Source: Chitinophaga pinensis
GTDB lineage: Bacteria; Bacteroidota; Bacteroidia; NS11-12g; UBA955
Assembly: GCA_945877575.1 (NCBI GenBank)
Contig: CAMDUE010000014.1
Span: forward strand, 5,375 to 69,374
Direction of reading: 5' to 3'
Length of the DNA stretch: 64,000 bases
In this document: piece by piece, positions 46,960-51,420 of the stretch
How the letters are laid out: every line of letters starts with the position of its first letter
How positions within the stretch are numbered: position 1 is the stretch's first letter
The notes under the pieces: model-generated
Databases searched by the model: none
Told to the model about the DNA's origin: nothing
Seen by the model: the letters and a program-made list of their open reading frames with translations, nothing else
Program-made: the position numbers and the translations under genes

Positions 46960-47604
46960 ATGATCAAACGCATTTTTAAATTCTTAATTACACTTTGGCT
47001 CATCAGTTTATTGCCTGTAATTCTGTATAAATGGATCAATCCACCGTTTACATTGATTCAGTGGTCTCAAAGTGACCTGCATACCTATGATGGAGAATGG
47101 CTGGACATAGAGCAAATTCCTGATCACTTCGAATTAGCTGCTTTGGCAGGTGAAGATCAGCTGTTTTTTGATCACAGCGGCTTTGACTTCAAGGCTATTT
47201 CCAACGCAGTCAAACACAATGCTCAAGGCAAACGCATCAGGGGTGGCAGCACCATTTCTCAGCAAACCGCAAAAAATGTCTTTTGTTGGGAGGGACGCAG
47301 TTACCTGAGAAAAGCCATTGAAGCATATTACACGCTTTGGATAGAATTAATCTGGGGCAAAAAAAGAATTTTGGAAGTTTATTTAAACGTCATTGAGATG
47401 GGTCGAGGTGCCTTTGGAATTGATGAAGCGGCCCATTACTATTACAATAAAAGCGGCACCGAGCTGAGTAGAAAACAAAGCATTGCCATTATTTCCATGC
47501 TTCCCTGTCCAAGAACTTGCGGCAAAAACCACCCACTTGCTCGCAGAAGACAATATCTCATTGATGTTGCCATGAGAAAGTACGGACTTAAACTTTCGTA
47601 TTAA
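46960..47604 (+). CDS. mtgA: Monofunctional peptidoglycan transglycosylase
   Basis: EDQLFFDHSGFD, RGGSTISQQTAKN, RKAIE, KKRILEVYLN. Confidence 0.93.
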   Translation: MIKRIFKFLITLWLISLLPVILYKWINPPFTLIQWSQSDLHTYDGEWLDIEQIPDHFELAALAGEDQLFFDHSGFDFKAISNAVKHNAQGKRIRGGSTISQQTAKNVFCWEGRSYLRKAIEAYYTLWIELIWGKKRILEVYLNVIEMGRGAFGIDEAAHYYYNKSGTELSRKQSIAIISMLPCPRTCGKNHPLARRRQYLIDVAMRKYGLKLSY

Positions 47605-47653
47605 TGTGATTTTTGTCATTTTATTTGTGGATTGAAATAATTAATTTTGCTTC

Positions 47654-48058
47654 ATGAGGTTCAAAAAATCATCTTCGTATTCGAACAAATGGTTTGCCTC
47701 AATGCTATTATTCGCTTTGTTTTTCCAAAGTTTGATACAACTTTTTCATATCATTCACTTTGAATTCAATAAAGATGAAATCATTAAAACCAGTTGCGTG
47801 CAGAGATACGCCGTAAAAAACTGTTGCCAAGGATCTTGCCACATAAATACTAAACTAAACGTCTCAAAAACATCAGAAGGCACAGAATCTGAAGTACAAC
47901 CTACCATTGTATTTCCCGAAGTTTTTTGCGAAAAACAATACAAAAAACAAATTCCATCAGATTTTTTTTCTGTGAGGTTGTTCACTTCAAAAAATGTTTA
48001 CTTCAAAACCAGTCTACTAAGCAATATAGACCCACCCCCACCTAAGTGTTTTTCTTGA
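47654..48058 (+). CDS. Small Cys-rich membrane-targeted leader protein ending in PPPP (DUF2946/CutF-like architecture)
   Basis: N-terminal hydrophobic segment, C-x8-CCxGxCH, C-terminal IDPPPPKCFS. First gene before mbnP; TAATTTTG box 4 nt upstream. Confidence 0.7.
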   Translation: MRFKKSSSYSNKWFASMLLFALFFQSLIQLFHIIHFEFNKDEIIKTSCVQRYAVKNCCQGSCHINTKLNVSKTSEGTESEVQPTIVFPEVFCEKQYKKQIPSDFFSVRLFTSKNVYFKTSLLSNIDPPPPKCFS

Positions 48059-48110
48059 TTTCGGATCCCCGCGCAATTGACGGGTCATTTAATTGCAATC
48101 TAAAACATTA
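48043..48110 (+). promoter_or_regulatory. Predicted RNA structure pairing the leader ORF's last codons with the mbnP initiation region
   Basis: TAA(G)TGTTTT 48043-52 pairs with AAAACATTA 48102-10; GATT 48057-60 with AATC 48097-100; GCAATTGA 48073-80 with TTAATTGC 48089-96. Confidence 0.5.
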
Positions 48111-48114
48111 AATC

Positions 48115-48894
48115 ATGAAAAACACCATTATTTGGTTGTCTCGTGCTACCCTTTGGGCAGCCTTGACCATTATCGCTTTACCATTGTTATTTTCTTCATG
48201 TACAGAAGAAGAAAAACCCAATAATTCTCCTAAAGTAGGAAACCTAACCATTGAAATTGATCATGTTTGGGGAATGGATCAAAAACCATTCCTCATGAAC
48301 ACCCCAATTGTACATCCTATGTCGGGCGATACCATGACCTTCAGTCTCATTAAATATTATTTATCAAACTTTGAGTTAATTAAGGCCGACGGCTCTTCCT
48401 ACAAAGTACCAAATTCCTACTTTTTAGTGAGCGAAACCGACAATAAAATTGAACTAAAAAATATCCCAATGGGTGAATATACCGCAGTAAATTTTTTAGT
48501 AGGTGTAGATAGCGCTGCCAACAACAGTGGTTTACAACAAGGAGCATTAAATCCATCAAACGGAATGTTTTGGAGTTGGTCAACTGGATACATTTTTATT
48601 CGAGTTGAGGGAACATCCCCGCAAGCTAAAAACAATACCTTTCTTTTTCATTTAGGAGGATACATTCCACCCTACAGTGCAATTCAAAAGAAAAACATGA
48701 TTCTTGGAGGAAACAGTGTTTCTATAAAGCCAGATGCAGCTCCCGTTTTACACATCAAAACCAATGTTGCCAGATTGTGGCATGGGCCTGTAAAACTAGC
48801 CGATGTAAGCGTAGTGCATAGCATCAGTGATTTATCTGTTTCAATGTCTGCGAACTTTCGTGACGGAATACTTTTTGACCATATTCATCAATAA
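48115..48894 (+). CDS. mbnP: MbnP-family copper-binding lipoprotein
   Basis: Lipobox FSSC; KYYLSNFEL, F.VGVDS..N, GMFWSWSTGYIF (WxW), FHLGG. Confidence 0.85.
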   Translation: MKNTIIWLSRATLWAALTIIALPLLFSSCTEEEKPNNSPKVGNLTIEIDHVWGMDQKPFLMNTPIVHPMSGDTMTFSLIKYYLSNFELIKADGSSYKVPNSYFLVSETDNKIELKNIPMGEYTAVNFLVGVDSAANNSGLQQGALNPSNGMFWSWSTGYIFIRVEGTSPQAKNNTFLFHLGGYIPPYSAIQKKNMILGGNSVSIKPDAAPVLHIKTNVARLWHGPVKLADVSVVHSISDLSVSMSANFRDGILFDHIHQ

Positions 48895-48897
48895 ATA

Positions 48898-49902
48898 ATG
48901 AATGCCCTATCGTTAAAAGGGTTAACTAACGGCAGAATATTACTTTTGGTTTTTATTCTGCCGTTAATTGAAACTAGTTGTCAAAAAAACGCTACTGATT
49001 CAGAATTTAAATTTCCCGCTGATTTCCCGTCAATACAATATAAAAATTTAGAAAATCAACTAACTCCACAAAAAATACATCTCGGAAGAGTCCTCTTTTA
49101 CGACCCCAATCTATCGTCTACCAGAACCATTTCATGCGGCAGTTGTCATGCCCAAGTACATGGATTTGCAGATCATAATCTACCTAAGAGTTTTGGCGTA
49201 CATAATCGCATAGGTATGAGAAATAGTCCGGCACTTCAAAATTTGGCTTGGAATACGCATTTTATGTGGGACGGAGGCATAACCCATCTTGATGTAATGC
49301 CCATTGCCCCCATTACCGATGTAAACGAAATGGATCTTCCTCTGGGAGAAGCTATAGAAAGAATAAGAGAGAACAAACAGTATCTTAATTTATTCAAAAA
49401 AGCATACGGTGACACCATCATAAACGAGAAAACCGTGCTCTTTGCTCTTTCTCAATTTATGCTAACGTTGGTCTCAGATCAAAGTAAATATGATGATGTT
49501 CGACGTGGAAAAACAAATTTCAATCAAATTGAATCCAAAGGCTACCAAGTCTTTAAAAATCATTGCGTTAAATGTCACTCTGAACCCCTACTAACAAACA
49601 ACCAAATGGAATACAACGGTTTGACAGTAAAATCAAAAGACTTGGGAAGATTTAGAATTACACAAACACTGAAAGATACCTTTCACTTTAAAGTCCCTAG
49701 TTTAAGAAATGTTGCTTTAACCTATCCTTACATGCATGATGGATCCTTTTCTAATTTAGATCAAGTATTGAAAGCCTATCAAACAAAATTTCAACTTGAA
49801 AATCATGACCTAGAAGCCCTGAGAGCTTTTTTAAATTCTCTAACTGACCATAAATTTATTTCCAATTTAAACCATGCAGAAATTCATCCCTTCAATCCAT
49901 AA
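48898..49902 (+). CDS. mbnH: Di-heme cytochrome c peroxidase-family protein (MbnH-like)
   Basis: LGRVLFYDPNLS, CGSCH, RNSPAL.N, FMWDG, CVKCH, FKVPSLRNV..T.PYMHDG. Adjacent to mbnP. Confidence 0.85.
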   Translation: MNALSLKGLTNGRILLLVFILPLIETSCQKNATDSEFKFPADFPSIQYKNLENQLTPQKIHLGRVLFYDPNLSSTRTISCGSCHAQVHGFADHNLPKSFGVHNRIGMRNSPALQNLAWNTHFMWDGGITHLDVMPIAPITDVNEMDLPLGEAIERIRENKQYLNLFKKAYGDTIINEKTVLFALSQFMLTLVSDQSKYDDVRRGKTNFNQIESKGYQVFKNHCVKCHSEPLLTNNQMEYNGLTVKSKDLGRFRITQTLKDTFHFKVPSLRNVALTYPYMHDGSFSNLDQVLKAYQTKFQLENHDLEALRAFLNSLTDHKFISNLNHAEIHPFNP

Positions 49903-50848
49903 ATCAATAATTATCATTTTTTTCACAGCTATAACAGCGACATTAAATGCCTGTGATATATGTGGCAGCGGACTTCGAGATGCTTCTTTTTCTATGGGAT
50001 ATTTACAAACCATTCCTTCTCATTTTTTGGGTGTTTGGGGAAACTCGCTCGGTTTCAATACCCAAACCGGATATTCCAATGGCACTAAATTCAACGTTTC
50101 TGACAGAATCCTTCAAACAGGCATTGTTTTTAACCAACAAATCAATCAAAAATTACAGATCAATTACCGTCAAGGCATCCAACAGATAAGTAGACACAAC
50201 GAAGACAATGAAAATAAAACCAATACCTATTCGGGTTTATCTGATTTAAGTGTGGCAGTAAATTACACACTAATTGACAGCCGAAAATTCGCCATAAAGA
50301 AAACCAAACAACTGGGTTTAACCTCGTTAAATGTGAAAATACCCAACGGACATTACCAATTGAGAGATGGGTATAAACGAATGCTACCCATGAATTTACA
50401 ACCCGGAAATGGCTCTTATGGAATAGGCGGTCAAGTACTTTATGGTATTTTCAAAAACGGATGGAATTGGAACATGCAACTTTCAGCCTTTTATAATTTT
50501 GAAAATGAACTGAAATACCAACAAGGAGACAATCAAATAATTCGTTCAGGAATTGGAAAAGCCTTCAGCTCTAAAAAAATTATATTCTTGCCTATGCTTG
50601 GATATCAATACCAACAATTTGGACCAGATTTAACCTACCGCGAAAGAGTAACAACTACTGGCGGCAATGTTCAAACCATCTTCATTCAACTGGAGTGGAT
50701 TAGACAAAACTTTTATGGTCGTTTCCAAGGAAACATCCCAGTGAAACAAACCCTTCCTGATTTTGCACCACAATCTACTAACCCAATCATGCTGACTTTG
50801 GGATGGTTGATTAACCAAAATTCAGAGGATATCAAGAGTTTTGATTAA
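49874..50848 (+). CDS. Outer-membrane barrel (MetA-pathway/transporter-like) with N-terminal CxxC
   Basis: Signal TLNA|CDICG; GLSDLSV, VKIPNG, LQPGNGS, Y.QGD; beta strands. Confidence 0.65.
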   Translation: MQKFIPSIHKSIIIIFFTAITATLNACDICGSGLRDASFSMGYLQTIPSHFLGVWGNSLGFNTQTGYSNGTKFNVSDRILQTGIVFNQQINQKLQINYRQGIQQISRHNEDNENKTNTYSGLSDLSVAVNYTLIDSRKFAIKKTKQLGLTSLNVKIPNGHYQLRDGYKRMLPMNLQPGNGSYGIGGQVLYGIFKNGWNWNMQLSAFYNFENELKYQQGDNQIIRSGIGKAFSSKKIIFLPMLGYQYQQFGPDLTYRERVTTTGGNVQTIFIQLEWIRQNFYGRFQGNIPVKQTLPDFAPQSTNPIMLTLGWLINQNSEDIKSFD

Positions 50849-50859
50849 TTTTGCAGAAT

Positions 50860-51420
50860 ATGGCAACGACTCAAGATATTTCTGTTGGGAATTTTATTCG
50901 CTATAACGGAGAATTAGTTCAAATCATTGAATGGCAACACCGTACTCCGGGTAACTTGCGCGCATTCTATCAAGCTAAAATGCGTCGTGTTAAAGACGGC
51001 AAATTAGCAGAAAACCGCTTCAGAAGTGGTGAATCTGTTGAAATAGTGCGTGTTGAAACCCATGAATTGCAGTATTTATATGAAGAGGGCGATGCCTATG
51101 TTTGCATGAATAATGAAACCTATGACCAAATTCCAGTGGCAAAACACCTGTTTGGCGAGGGAGCAAAATTCATGAAAGAGGGAGATACCGTGATGATCGC
51201 TTTCGAAAGCGAAACTCCAATTTCTGCTGAACCCCCAAACTATGCAATTTTGGAAATCACCTACACCGAACCTGGTGTTAAAGGCGATACCGCAACCAAT
51301 ACTCTTAAACAAGCCACAGTGGAAGGCGGTGCTACAGTGATGGTTCCTTTGTTTGTGGATACCGGGGAAAAAATCAGAATTGATACCCGCAACGGATCAT
51401 ACATGGAACGAGTGAAATAA
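50860..51420 (+). CDS. efp: Elongation factor P (TPGNLR loop variant)
   Basis: Start re-called to ATG 50860. QYLY, FMKEG, TEPGVKGDTA, VPLFV..GE.I.IDTR.G.Y.ERVK. Confidence 0.95.
   Translation: MATTQDISVGNFIRYNGELVQIIEWQHRTPGNLRAFYQAKMRRVKDGKLAENRFRSGESVEIVRVETHELQYLYEEGDAYVCMNNETYDQIPVAKHLFGEGAKFMKEGDTVMIAFESETPISAEPPNYAILEITYTEPGVKGDTATNTLKQATVEGGATVMVPLFVDTGEKIRIDTRNGSYMERVK

Follow-up and report, generated by a model that had tools for sequence, protein, structure and literature searches.

A candidate pause-dependent leader upstream of an mbnP-like gene is one of many Bacteroidota upstream open reading frames with a Cys motif and a PP ending

What is the function of a small Cys-containing protein whose gene ends in a run of Pro codons directly upstream of a copper-linked operon? 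This question is raised by a locus of Chitinophaga pinensis (GTDB lineage Bacteroidota; Bacteroidia; NS11-12g; UBA955; assembly GCA_945877575.1, contig CAMDUE010000014.1, positions 5,375 to 69,374), which lies in a stretch of 64,000 nucleotides, here called the window, that was analysed as a whole. An earlier note on this DNA had proposed that a leader open reading frame (ORF) of 134 amino acids senses a metal and arrests its own ribosome on a polyproline motif, thereby controlling translation of the mbnP-like gene that follows. Our comparative analysis tips in favour of this proposal: we slightly prefer to see the ORF as a cis-acting sensor-leader rather than as an ordinary structural gene, and a cis-acting, pause-dependent translational switch of mbnP is, by a similarly small preference, its most plausible mode of action. 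Moreover, the leader is a member of a large unnamed Bacteroidota family of upstream ORFs which share a Cys motif and a PP ending.

The leader is composed of the following parts:

47654-48058, + strand: leader ORF, 134 amino acids, from the ORF list
47678-47767, + strand: codons of the N-terminal hydrophobic helix (residues ~9-38), from AlphaFold2 and Kyte-Doolittle hydropathy
47795-47842, + strand: Cys cluster C48-x8-C57C58-QGS-C62-H63, a putative metal or disulfide sensor, from the alignment of 61 members
47843-48031, + strand: spacer, residues 64-126, of which the length is kept and the sequence is not
48032-48043, + strand: four Pro codons CCA CCC CCA CCT in the context D-PPPP-K, a putative ribosome pause site four codons 5' of the stop

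The anatomy given in the earlier note was borne out throughout. The ORF list contains the 134-amino-acid frame at this position, the best 19-residue Kyte-Doolittle window covers residues 16-34 (mean 1.87), the cluster C-x8-CCxGxCH is present as C48-x8-C57C58-Q-G-S-C62-H63, and the protein ends in DPPPPKCFS*, with PPPP at residues 127-130. The hydrophobic segment is the only one and the N-terminus carries a net charge of +4; by the positive-inside rule, the helix would be a signal-anchor or an uncleaved signal with the N-terminus inside. In an AlphaFold2 model built from the 61-sequence alignment, helices at residues 9-38, 40-47 and 61-68 are predicted with good confidence (block predicted local distance difference test, pLDDT, ~93 for helix 9-38), followed by a coil without secondary structure at residues 69-118 (block pLDDT 52-63). 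The leader protein matches no Pfam or NCBIfam family at E<=0.1. It agrees with all four rule filters that are described for CutF-like proteins in PMC9973294: it has 134 amino acids, one N-terminal hydrophobic helix by hydropathy and AlphaFold2, a PPPP that begins 8 residues from its end, and a downstream gene, mbnP, 56 nucleotides away on the same strand. The RAPP/RGPP arrest motif (R-A/G-P-P near the C-terminus) does not occur in the leader, which has D-PPPP-K instead.

Homologues of the leader are numerous. A phmmer search against 1.84 billion representatives returned 187 representatives at E<=1e-3. The single protein used as query found matches in 23 of 61 close relatives, and the family profile derived from the 61-sequence alignment matches 143 of 401 Bacteroidota genomes sampled phylum-wide, often two or three times per genome. 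Across the 61 aligned members the invariant columns are C48, C58, C62, P128 and P129; C58-x3-C62 (CxxxC) is found in 61/61, and the family-wide invariant Cys pattern is C-x9-C-x3-C. The ends of the proteins were analysed in the 138 of 153 stored sequences that passed our filters (100-170 amino acids, Cys signature, PP within the last 16 residues). In these, PP lies 1-9 residues from the stop (median 3), the tail after it is unconserved, and the distance from the last Cys to PP has a median of 67 residues with an interquartile range of 66-69 and a 5-95% range of 64-72. The sequence between the Cys motif and PP, about 50 residues of predicted coil, is unconserved though its length is fixed to a few residues. 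The residue preceding PP is H in 57, P in 33, Q in 18, R in 13 and K in 12 of the 138, and one position earlier it is mostly F (62). The commonest ending is I-F-H-P-P-x(2-4)*, and the small subfamily that holds the window leader ends in I-D-P-P-P-P-K-x-F-S*.

None of the 61 aligned members matches any plausible Pfam or NCBIfam family. The DUF2946 profile PF11162 matches 0 of the 61 at E<=1, and it gave no match in the whole genome, with 2 of 14 control genomes positive; in the Atlas, clusters named DUF2946 appeared only at 0.90, which is a lead only. Several genomes carry two copies of the family on the same strand 2.1-4.4 kilobases apart, most of them 3.4-4.4 kilobases (G154:C20, G402:C26, G110:C12, G081:C1 and G398:C1), an arrangement that suggests a tandem array in which every copy precedes a gene of its own.

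The earlier note had suggested checking whether homologues always lie in cis upstream of metal-handling genes, and the gene context is largely of this kind. An ORF with the family signature is present in 58 of 59 fetched loci; the exception, a weak archaeal match without such an ORF (L030), was dropped, and removal of 4 duplicates left 54 loci, 53 of which have a downstream ORF on the same strand. Among the 52 downstream proteins that were scanned (the window was excluded), 19 match MbnP, 14 the TonB-receptor plug, 3 YtkA-like, 2 SCO1 and 2 AraC-type families, the two SCO1 matches probably belonging to loci with spacers of 473 and 641 nucleotides. In nine or ten further loci, as judged by reading the N-termini by eye, the gene directly after the leader is not an MbnP gene; it is a CDxCG-type gene like the third gene of the window operon. 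The family is thus a cis-upstream companion of extracytoplasmic, mostly copper-linked genes.

The junction between the leader and mbnP contains three structured parts:

48046-48061, + strand: left arm of a long-range stem, comprising the last four leader codons, the TGA stop (48056-48058) and 3 nucleotides, from the fold and pair probabilities
48073-48096, + strand: inner hairpin of 8 base pairs, 48073-48080 with 48089-48096, loop 48081-48088 (CGGGTCAT), from the fold
48110-48125, + strand: right arm of the long-range stem, comprising the mbnP ATG (48115-48117) plus the eight bases 48118-48125

Folding of 48030-48130, a check which the earlier note had proposed, gave -22.5 kcal/mol with z = -3.96, and 0 of 200 dinucleotide shuffles were as stable; in the larger context 47990-48170 (181 nucleotides), z was -2.42 and 4 of 200 shuffles were as stable. 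The note had placed the complementarity between nucleotides 3' of the Pro codons (48043-48060) and an A-rich region at 48097-48110. Its left arm holds, whereas that partner does not: the proposed duplex reaches only -6.0 kcal/mol with a pair probability of 0, and the predicted partner is the start-codon region 48110-48125. The stem formed in this way has 15 pairs and one T.T mismatch (duplex -16.0 kcal/mol), with probabilities of 0.93-1.0 for 14 pairs and of 0.70 for the end pair. In the right arm, 14 of 16 positions have an unpaired probability of <=0.1, apart from 48110 (0.28) and the mismatched T48116 (1.0), and the leader stop codon is paired to 48113-48115. The 8-base-pair inner hairpin of the earlier note was recovered by the fold.

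The only distinct close locus, L002, which is the same as L021 (leader 59% identical), shares this architecture and forms 18 left-right pairs. Several bases of its left arm are different, one of the changes converting the T.T mismatch of the window into an A-U pair, and its right arm is identical to that of the window and is fixed by M-K-N-T coding. The inner hairpin shows two double-sided changes between the two loci (A-U to U-G and U-A to A-U), one single-sided change (G-U to G-C) and no broken pair, and the loop CGGGTCAT is identical; with two sequences compared, this conservation is weak support. A role as junction element, protein site or transcription pause is conceivable for the hairpin. 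It is not a repeated genomic element, as the 7 genomic copies of a 9-mer taken from its arm and loop lie in contexts that are unrelated. A search of 47500-48300 against Rfam at E<=1 gave 0 matches, the scan for terminator-like sites was negative on the + strand of 47300-51200, and a metagenome scan returned one near-identical locus only (L077) and no new stem variation.

If the stem masks the start of mbnP, a ribosome held on the Pro codons should lower the cost of opening it. Our mask test measured the drop in energy needed to open positions -15 to +12 of the downstream start when a ribosome footprint of 31 nucleotides, with the second Pro of the last PP pair at its centre, is kept unpaired. 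The background consisted of every pair of adjacent ORFs in the window's genome that lie on the same strand and are 25-230 nucleotides apart (371 pairs), with the footprint four codons before the stop. The family set comprised 49 of the 54 loci, one being dropped for lack of a downstream ORF and four for spacers >230 nucleotides, and was collapsed at 45% identity into 38 clusters. In the window, the mask reduces the opening energy of the mbnP start by 6.7 kcal/mol, from 12.6 kcal/mol to 5.9 kcal/mol (by 6.0-6.1 kcal/mol with 70 nucleotides of upstream context), and a mock footprint 36 nucleotides upstream gives -0.1; only 3 of 371 background junctions reach the drop of the window. The claim that a paused ribosome would cover the left arm and free the mbnP start is thus supported in the model, in which the cost is lowered by about 6 kcal/mol.

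The family as a whole differs from the background as well. The median drop is 2.1 kcal/mol in the family and 0.02 kcal/mol in the background; a drop of at least 3 kcal/mol is seen in 19/49 family loci and 19/371 background junctions, and one of at least 5 kcal/mol in 10/49 and 6/371, respectively. On the level of clusters, 11/38 reach at least 3 and 7/38 at least 5 kcal/mol, compared to the same background counts (Mann-Whitney p = 2e-6 for clusters against background; relatives are not independent, so that the p-values of this test overstate the difference). With spacers matched in bins, the difference is found at 25-60 nucleotides (p = 0.0009), 61-100 nucleotides (p = 0.007) and 141-230 nucleotides (p = 0.006), and it did not hold at 101-140 nucleotides (p = 0.10). 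The mock footprint 36 nucleotides upstream counted 1 of the 38 clusters. In this model, the window locus is among the clearest predicted start-codon switches of the family.

Two further protein families to which the Atlas pointed, at the level of a lead, resemble the leader in design (loci L065-L076 and L061-L062). DUF6660 (PF20365) carries CSPFCxCxCCG, ends in ...IWQPPKI*, occurs in 28/151 genomes and lies upstream of CzcA/CusA-type RND pumps; DUF6769 (PF20558) is His-rich, ends in ...GLRAPPV* and occurs in 4/151 genomes, with the L061 copy before a HlyD-type adaptor. As in the leader family, these are small, N-terminally hydrophobic, Cys- or His-rich, PP-ending proteins encoded in cis before metal genes. 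They differ in their Cys motif or His-rich sequence, in their RND pump or HlyD neighbours and in being rarer than the leader family with its 143/401 genomes. Homology is not established in either case: hhalign gave a probability of 55% for DUF6660, confined to the C-terminal 30 columns with the I[FW][HQ]PP stretch, and 22% for DUF6769. Among the loci of both families with spacers of <=230 nucleotides, 5/12 drop by at least 5 kcal/mol in the mask test, with mock values of -1.2 to 0.7. That otherwise unrelated leaders should end alike, in [I][F/W][H/Q]PP, speaks for selection of this ending by the ribosome and not by a protein partner. Furthermore, the distance from Cys to PP is ~41 residues in DUF6660 and 67 in the leader family, and this difference may separate cytoplasmic from periplasmic sensing.

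How could such a leader work? Bacteroidota do not rely on Shine-Dalgarno pairing, and we therefore propose that an mbnP start closed by the stem, with the ATG inside it, would not be initiated efficiently in the resting mRNA. A ribosome that translates the leader would pause on D-PPPP-K, and its footprint and helicase would melt the left arm and expose the mbnP start; counted from the coordinates and assuming a reach of 15 nucleotides beyond the P site, the paused ribosome would cover 8-11 nucleotides of the 16-nucleotide left arm. The longer the pause, the more mbnP and, by coupling, also mbnH and barrel product would be made. The exit tunnel together with the Sec/YidC channel spans roughly 67 residues. 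With the Pro codons in the peptidyl-transferase centre, the CxxxC motif 67 residues back would be just in the periplasm, as a preprint proposes for CutF (10.1101/2025.02.05.636593). Metal binding or disulfide formation on the periplasmic side could then alter how strongly the nascent chain is pulled and thus the length of the pause. The metal, presumably copper, and the direction of control are the most conjectural parts of this scheme: our guess is that copper shortens the pause and turns the operon off, as in CruR, and we favour this direction because the controlled genes look like genes for copper binding or uptake.

Several points weigh against a pause-dependent switch. In the model, a ribosome terminating at the leader stop opens the stem equally well (5.9 kcal/mol), so that on the RNA data a regulated pause is indistinguishable from plain translational coupling. 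The earlier note had expected both a Pro-rich end and a stem in homologues; the former is invariant, as PP is found in all 61 aligned members, whereas the stem is not a family constant, 27/38 clusters staying below 3 kcal/mol. Even among the same-genus or same-family MbnP loci, 6/9 (L003, L004, L005, L008, L009 and L010, with spacers of 147-219 nucleotides) show a drop of ~0. In the minimum-free-energy fold, the count of left-right pairs is only moderately above the background, with at least 7 pairs in 49% compared to 27% (p = 0.01), and the outer stem is without double-sided covariation between the window and its only distinct close relative because the right arm is identical in L021. Polyproline alone may pause ribosomes only briefly when elongation factor P (EF-P) is present, and the efp gene is located right behind the operon. 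According to PMC9973294, the Pro motif of CutF alone did not arrest LepB fusions in Escherichia coli. Moreover, no sequence homology to DUF2946 was found in the 61 members or in the whole genome, and stalling, membrane topology and metal binding are all steps that we infer.

Some of these points could be accommodated by a stable, membrane-anchored periplasmic Cys protein that acts in trans, for instance as a copper chaperone, a thiol-redox partner or a signalling subunit for MbnP, TonB receptors or barrels, with PP as an interaction or sorting motif and the stem as ordinary coupling that keeps subunit ratios. The well conserved and confidently modelled N-terminal third (helices 9-38, 40-47 and 61-68) and the constant company of extracytoplasmic metal genes fit such a protein, as do the 27/38 clusters without a strong switch signal and the ability of a terminating ribosome to open the stem as well as a paused one. 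We nevertheless consider it unlikely. An unconserved coil of ~50 residues that keeps a fixed length would be unusual in a binding protein, whereas a ruler typically has this property; only 1-9 residues, which are not conserved, follow PP; and an ending of the I[FW][HQ]PP type is found again upstream of RND pumps, in a family that is unrelated. In addition, the proteobacterial analogues act in cis, and secreted CutF is rapidly degraded, as reported in PMC9973294. Control could also be exerted on transcription, with the PP-paused ribosome blocking Rho or a terminator in the spacer and its release ending transcription before mbnP, as in CruR. The CruR system as described in PMC9426467 sets a precedent across a 162-nucleotide spacer, many loci of the family have spacers of 140-220 nucleotides and no start-masking stem, and no role has been assigned to the inner hairpin, whose loop is conserved. 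The spacer of the window, however, is only 56 nucleotides long and the surrounding region is mostly stem and hairpin; the + strand is free of terminator-like sites in 47300-51200, no C-rich unstructured tract was seen by eye in the spacer (no C>G profile was computed), and start-codon masking is strong. For the window, control of this type is thus quite improbable. To a similarly low chance we assign a conserved small protein without any regulation, in which the stem would be a by-product of A/T-rich sequence, the leader end ...TTTTTCTTGA mirroring the mbnP start ATCATGAAAAA. The genome is indeed AT-rich (window GC content 39.5%), 19% of ordinary junctions have at least 10 left-right pairs in the minimum-free-energy fold, and the right arm is fixed by coding and identical in L021. 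Such a by-product is difficult to reconcile with z = -3.96 against dinucleotide shuffles, a mask effect that is matched by only 3/371 junctions, the enrichment of the family over background and mock footprint, and the left arm of L021, which differs at several bases yet pairs better, with its 18 left-right pairs.

The genes downstream of the leader are arranged as follows:

48115-48894, + strand: mbnP-like gene, separated from the leader by a 56-nucleotide spacer; Pfam MbnP (PF20243), 3.1e-50
48898-49902, + strand: mbnH-like di-haem MauG/CCP gene; Pfam CCP_MauG, 8.8e-48
49874-50848, + strand: putative outer-membrane barrel or channel, 324 amino acids, with CDIC at residues 27-30
50851-51420, + strand: efp (elongation factor P), with a gap of 2 nucleotides from the last gene of the operon

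The designation of these genes as an mbnP-mbnH-barrel operon can be kept with qualifications. The MbnP-like product is securely identified by Pfam (171 bits, cut-off 27) and stays below the stricter TIGR04052 equivalog (50.9 bits, cut-off 140). It has an N-terminal hydrophobic segment ending in LLFSSC and WSW at residues 153-155, an instance of the WxW motif; in MbnP, according to PMC11951088, this conserved motif holds the precursor of the kynurenine that makes up the copper site. The mbnH-like gene follows after a gap of 3 nucleotides (its start is 4 nucleotides after the mbnP stop codon). Its product has two CxxCH motifs (residues 80 and 223) and reaches 190 bits with TIGR04039, the MbnH family, for which the cut-off is 362.85; judged by these profiles, it is best called an MbnH-like MauG/CCP enzyme. 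The third gene overlaps the second by 29 nucleotides and is a barrel gene only putatively, as its product has no Pfam or NCBIfam match. In the Atlas it lies closest to 'transporter' clusters of Bacteroidota, the first of which has Phenol_MetA_deg in 13% of its members, a lead only. Other barrel-like proteins, most of them without a Pfam match and with C-D/E-x-C-G shortly behind their N-terminal hydrophobic segment, were seen in L007, L011, L013, L017, L019, L020, L035, L053 and L057.

The efp gene, which encodes the factor that relieves polyproline pauses, adjoins the operon in the same order in L021, L022 and L023, which are probably same-genus records, and is absent from the examined flanks of L024-L029. 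As the adjacency is limited to same-genus loci, we take it as probable synteny and not as a functional link, curious as it is in view of the EF-P dependence of CutF. Upstream of the leader, between mtgA and the ATG, an element TGTGAy-N4-rTCAT (47605-47619, + strand) is common to the window, L021 and L022, the L022 alignment reaching only this element. The consensus of the Bacteroidota -7 promoter box is TAnnTTTG. At 47642-47649 (+ strand), TAATTTTG (TAAATTTG in L021) resembles this box and ends 4 nucleotides before the leader ATG. A leaderless transcript starting at the ATG is unsupported, as one RNA-library contig begins at 47580, upstream of the suspected box. Four freshwater or lake metatranscriptome runs contain short contigs on 47580-47860 and 48160-48765 and none that bridges 47860-48160, and DNA carry-over is possible in these libraries.

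What would such a leader family mean for the phylum? It is conceivable, and we advance it tentatively as a reading that we think is rather less likely to be right than wrong, that the family represents an independently evolved, phylum-wide transmembrane metal sensor that operates during its own synthesis: a ruler of 67 residues would hold the CxxxC motif in the periplasm, outside the tunnel and translocon, while a Bacteroidota-specific arrest motif (I-F-H-P-P, in the window D-PPPP-K) is decoded, and the pause would unmask the starts of copper-uptake genes in organisms whose initiation is not guided by Shine-Dalgarno sequences. Metal-sensing arrest leaders have so far been demonstrated in two Proteobacteria only, as CutF and CruR. 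If the family works in the manner of these two, co-translational metal sensing would reach a second phylum with a different initiation mechanism, and on the wider reading, with matches in about a third of the sampled Bacteroidota genomes, often in several copies, it could be the main post-transcriptional copper control of the phylum. The I[FW][HQ]PP ending common to unrelated families would be a new, lineage-specific arrest motif for Bacteroidota ribosomes, and the two ruler lengths, 67 and 45 residues, would provide a natural comparison that separates periplasmic from cytoplasmic sensing. Moreover, such a mechanism would explain the control of MbnP/MbnH-type copper proteins and of many TonB receptors in Flavobacteriia and their relatives. 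The window, with its 56-nucleotide spacer, a 15-base-pair stem over the ATG and PPPP, is one of the cleanest test cases.

The closest counterpart in design is CutF, a DUF2946-type protein and the first gene product of cutFOG in Rhodobacter capsulatus, whose CxxxC motif is given as C41xxxC45 and whose control is described as dependent on EF-P in the preprint cited above. Like CutF, the leader is a small exported or membrane-targeted protein encoded first in its operon, with CxxxC and a polyproline near the stop, followed by a short spacer whose stem (a predicted one in the leader) hides the initiation site of the next gene, and in both the proposed trigger is a metal that acts on the portion of the nascent chain in the periplasm as the Pro codons are being read. 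Unlike CutF, with which it has no detectable sequence relationship, the leader has C48 as a third invariant Cys, its Pro residues stand in another context (D-PPPP-K, and I-F-H-P-P in the family), and its predicted stem covers the start codon itself instead of a Shine-Dalgarno sequence. Furthermore, the genes behind the leader look like copper-binding or uptake genes (MbnP, MbnH and barrel), whereas those of CutF encode an oxidase for detoxification, and control may for this reason have the opposite sign. In their survey, Öztürk et al. 2023 (PMC9973294) count 5,334 CutF-like proteins, 19% of them from Bacteroidota, with TonB-like neighbours among the commonest. The main text of that paper does not use the name MbnP and presents the Bacteroidota proteins without experiments, and our leader family may be among its 29 CutF-like clusters. 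The earlier note knew of no characterisation of this version, and this holds as far as experiments are concerned, as we found none on a Bacteroidota member in our literature searches; as a list entry, CutF-like proteins of Bacteroidota had already been published there. Similarly, its description of the leader as a Bacteroidota analogue is upheld by the anatomy and the cis context, whereas the supposedly different Cys motif is not, since C58-x3-C62 has the CxxxC spacing of CutF.

CruR (Bp2923) of Bordetella pertussis, a DUF2946 (PF11162) protein, offers a second comparison. As described in PMC9426467, its CXXC and RAPP motifs are 45 intervening residues apart, a spacing that is conserved and functionally important; it is independent of its own signal peptide and of EF-P and works via Rho across the 162-nucleotide spacer, and its arrest has been shown in vitro (PMC12992588). 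The leader shares with CruR the position as an upstream ORF, the Cys motif, a C-terminal xxPP arrest motif and the fixed spacing between both. CruR heads a copper-uptake operon with a TonB-dependent transporter, and 14/52 loci of the present family lead to a TonB-receptor plug. The family differs from CruR by its 67 residues from the last Cys to the first Pro of the last PP pair, by an ending other than RAPP, by the spacer of 56 nucleotides in the window and by translation initiation as the predicted target. The 2025 EMBO J survey of RAPP/RGPP peptides (PMC12992588) reports, in its account of these peptides, no copper-related upstream ORFs of that motif in Bacteroidota, which fits the different motif of our leaders. 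With the force-sensitive arrest peptides SecM, VemP and MifM and the RAPP-type ApdA/ApdP, as outlined in PMC9973294, the family has in common a C-terminal arrest motif, a membrane-targeted leader and a pause that would remodel the mRNA near the next start. Those leaders monitor the secretion machinery and precede sec or yidC genes, whereas the present family precedes metal genes and has a putative Cys sensor. Overall, the leader family can be described as a functional analogue, and not a detectable homologue, of CutF and CruR, with which it shares a conserved Cys motif, a fixed Cys-PP spacing (67 compared to 45 residues) and an mRNA structure that is predicted to hide the start in 11/38 clusters.

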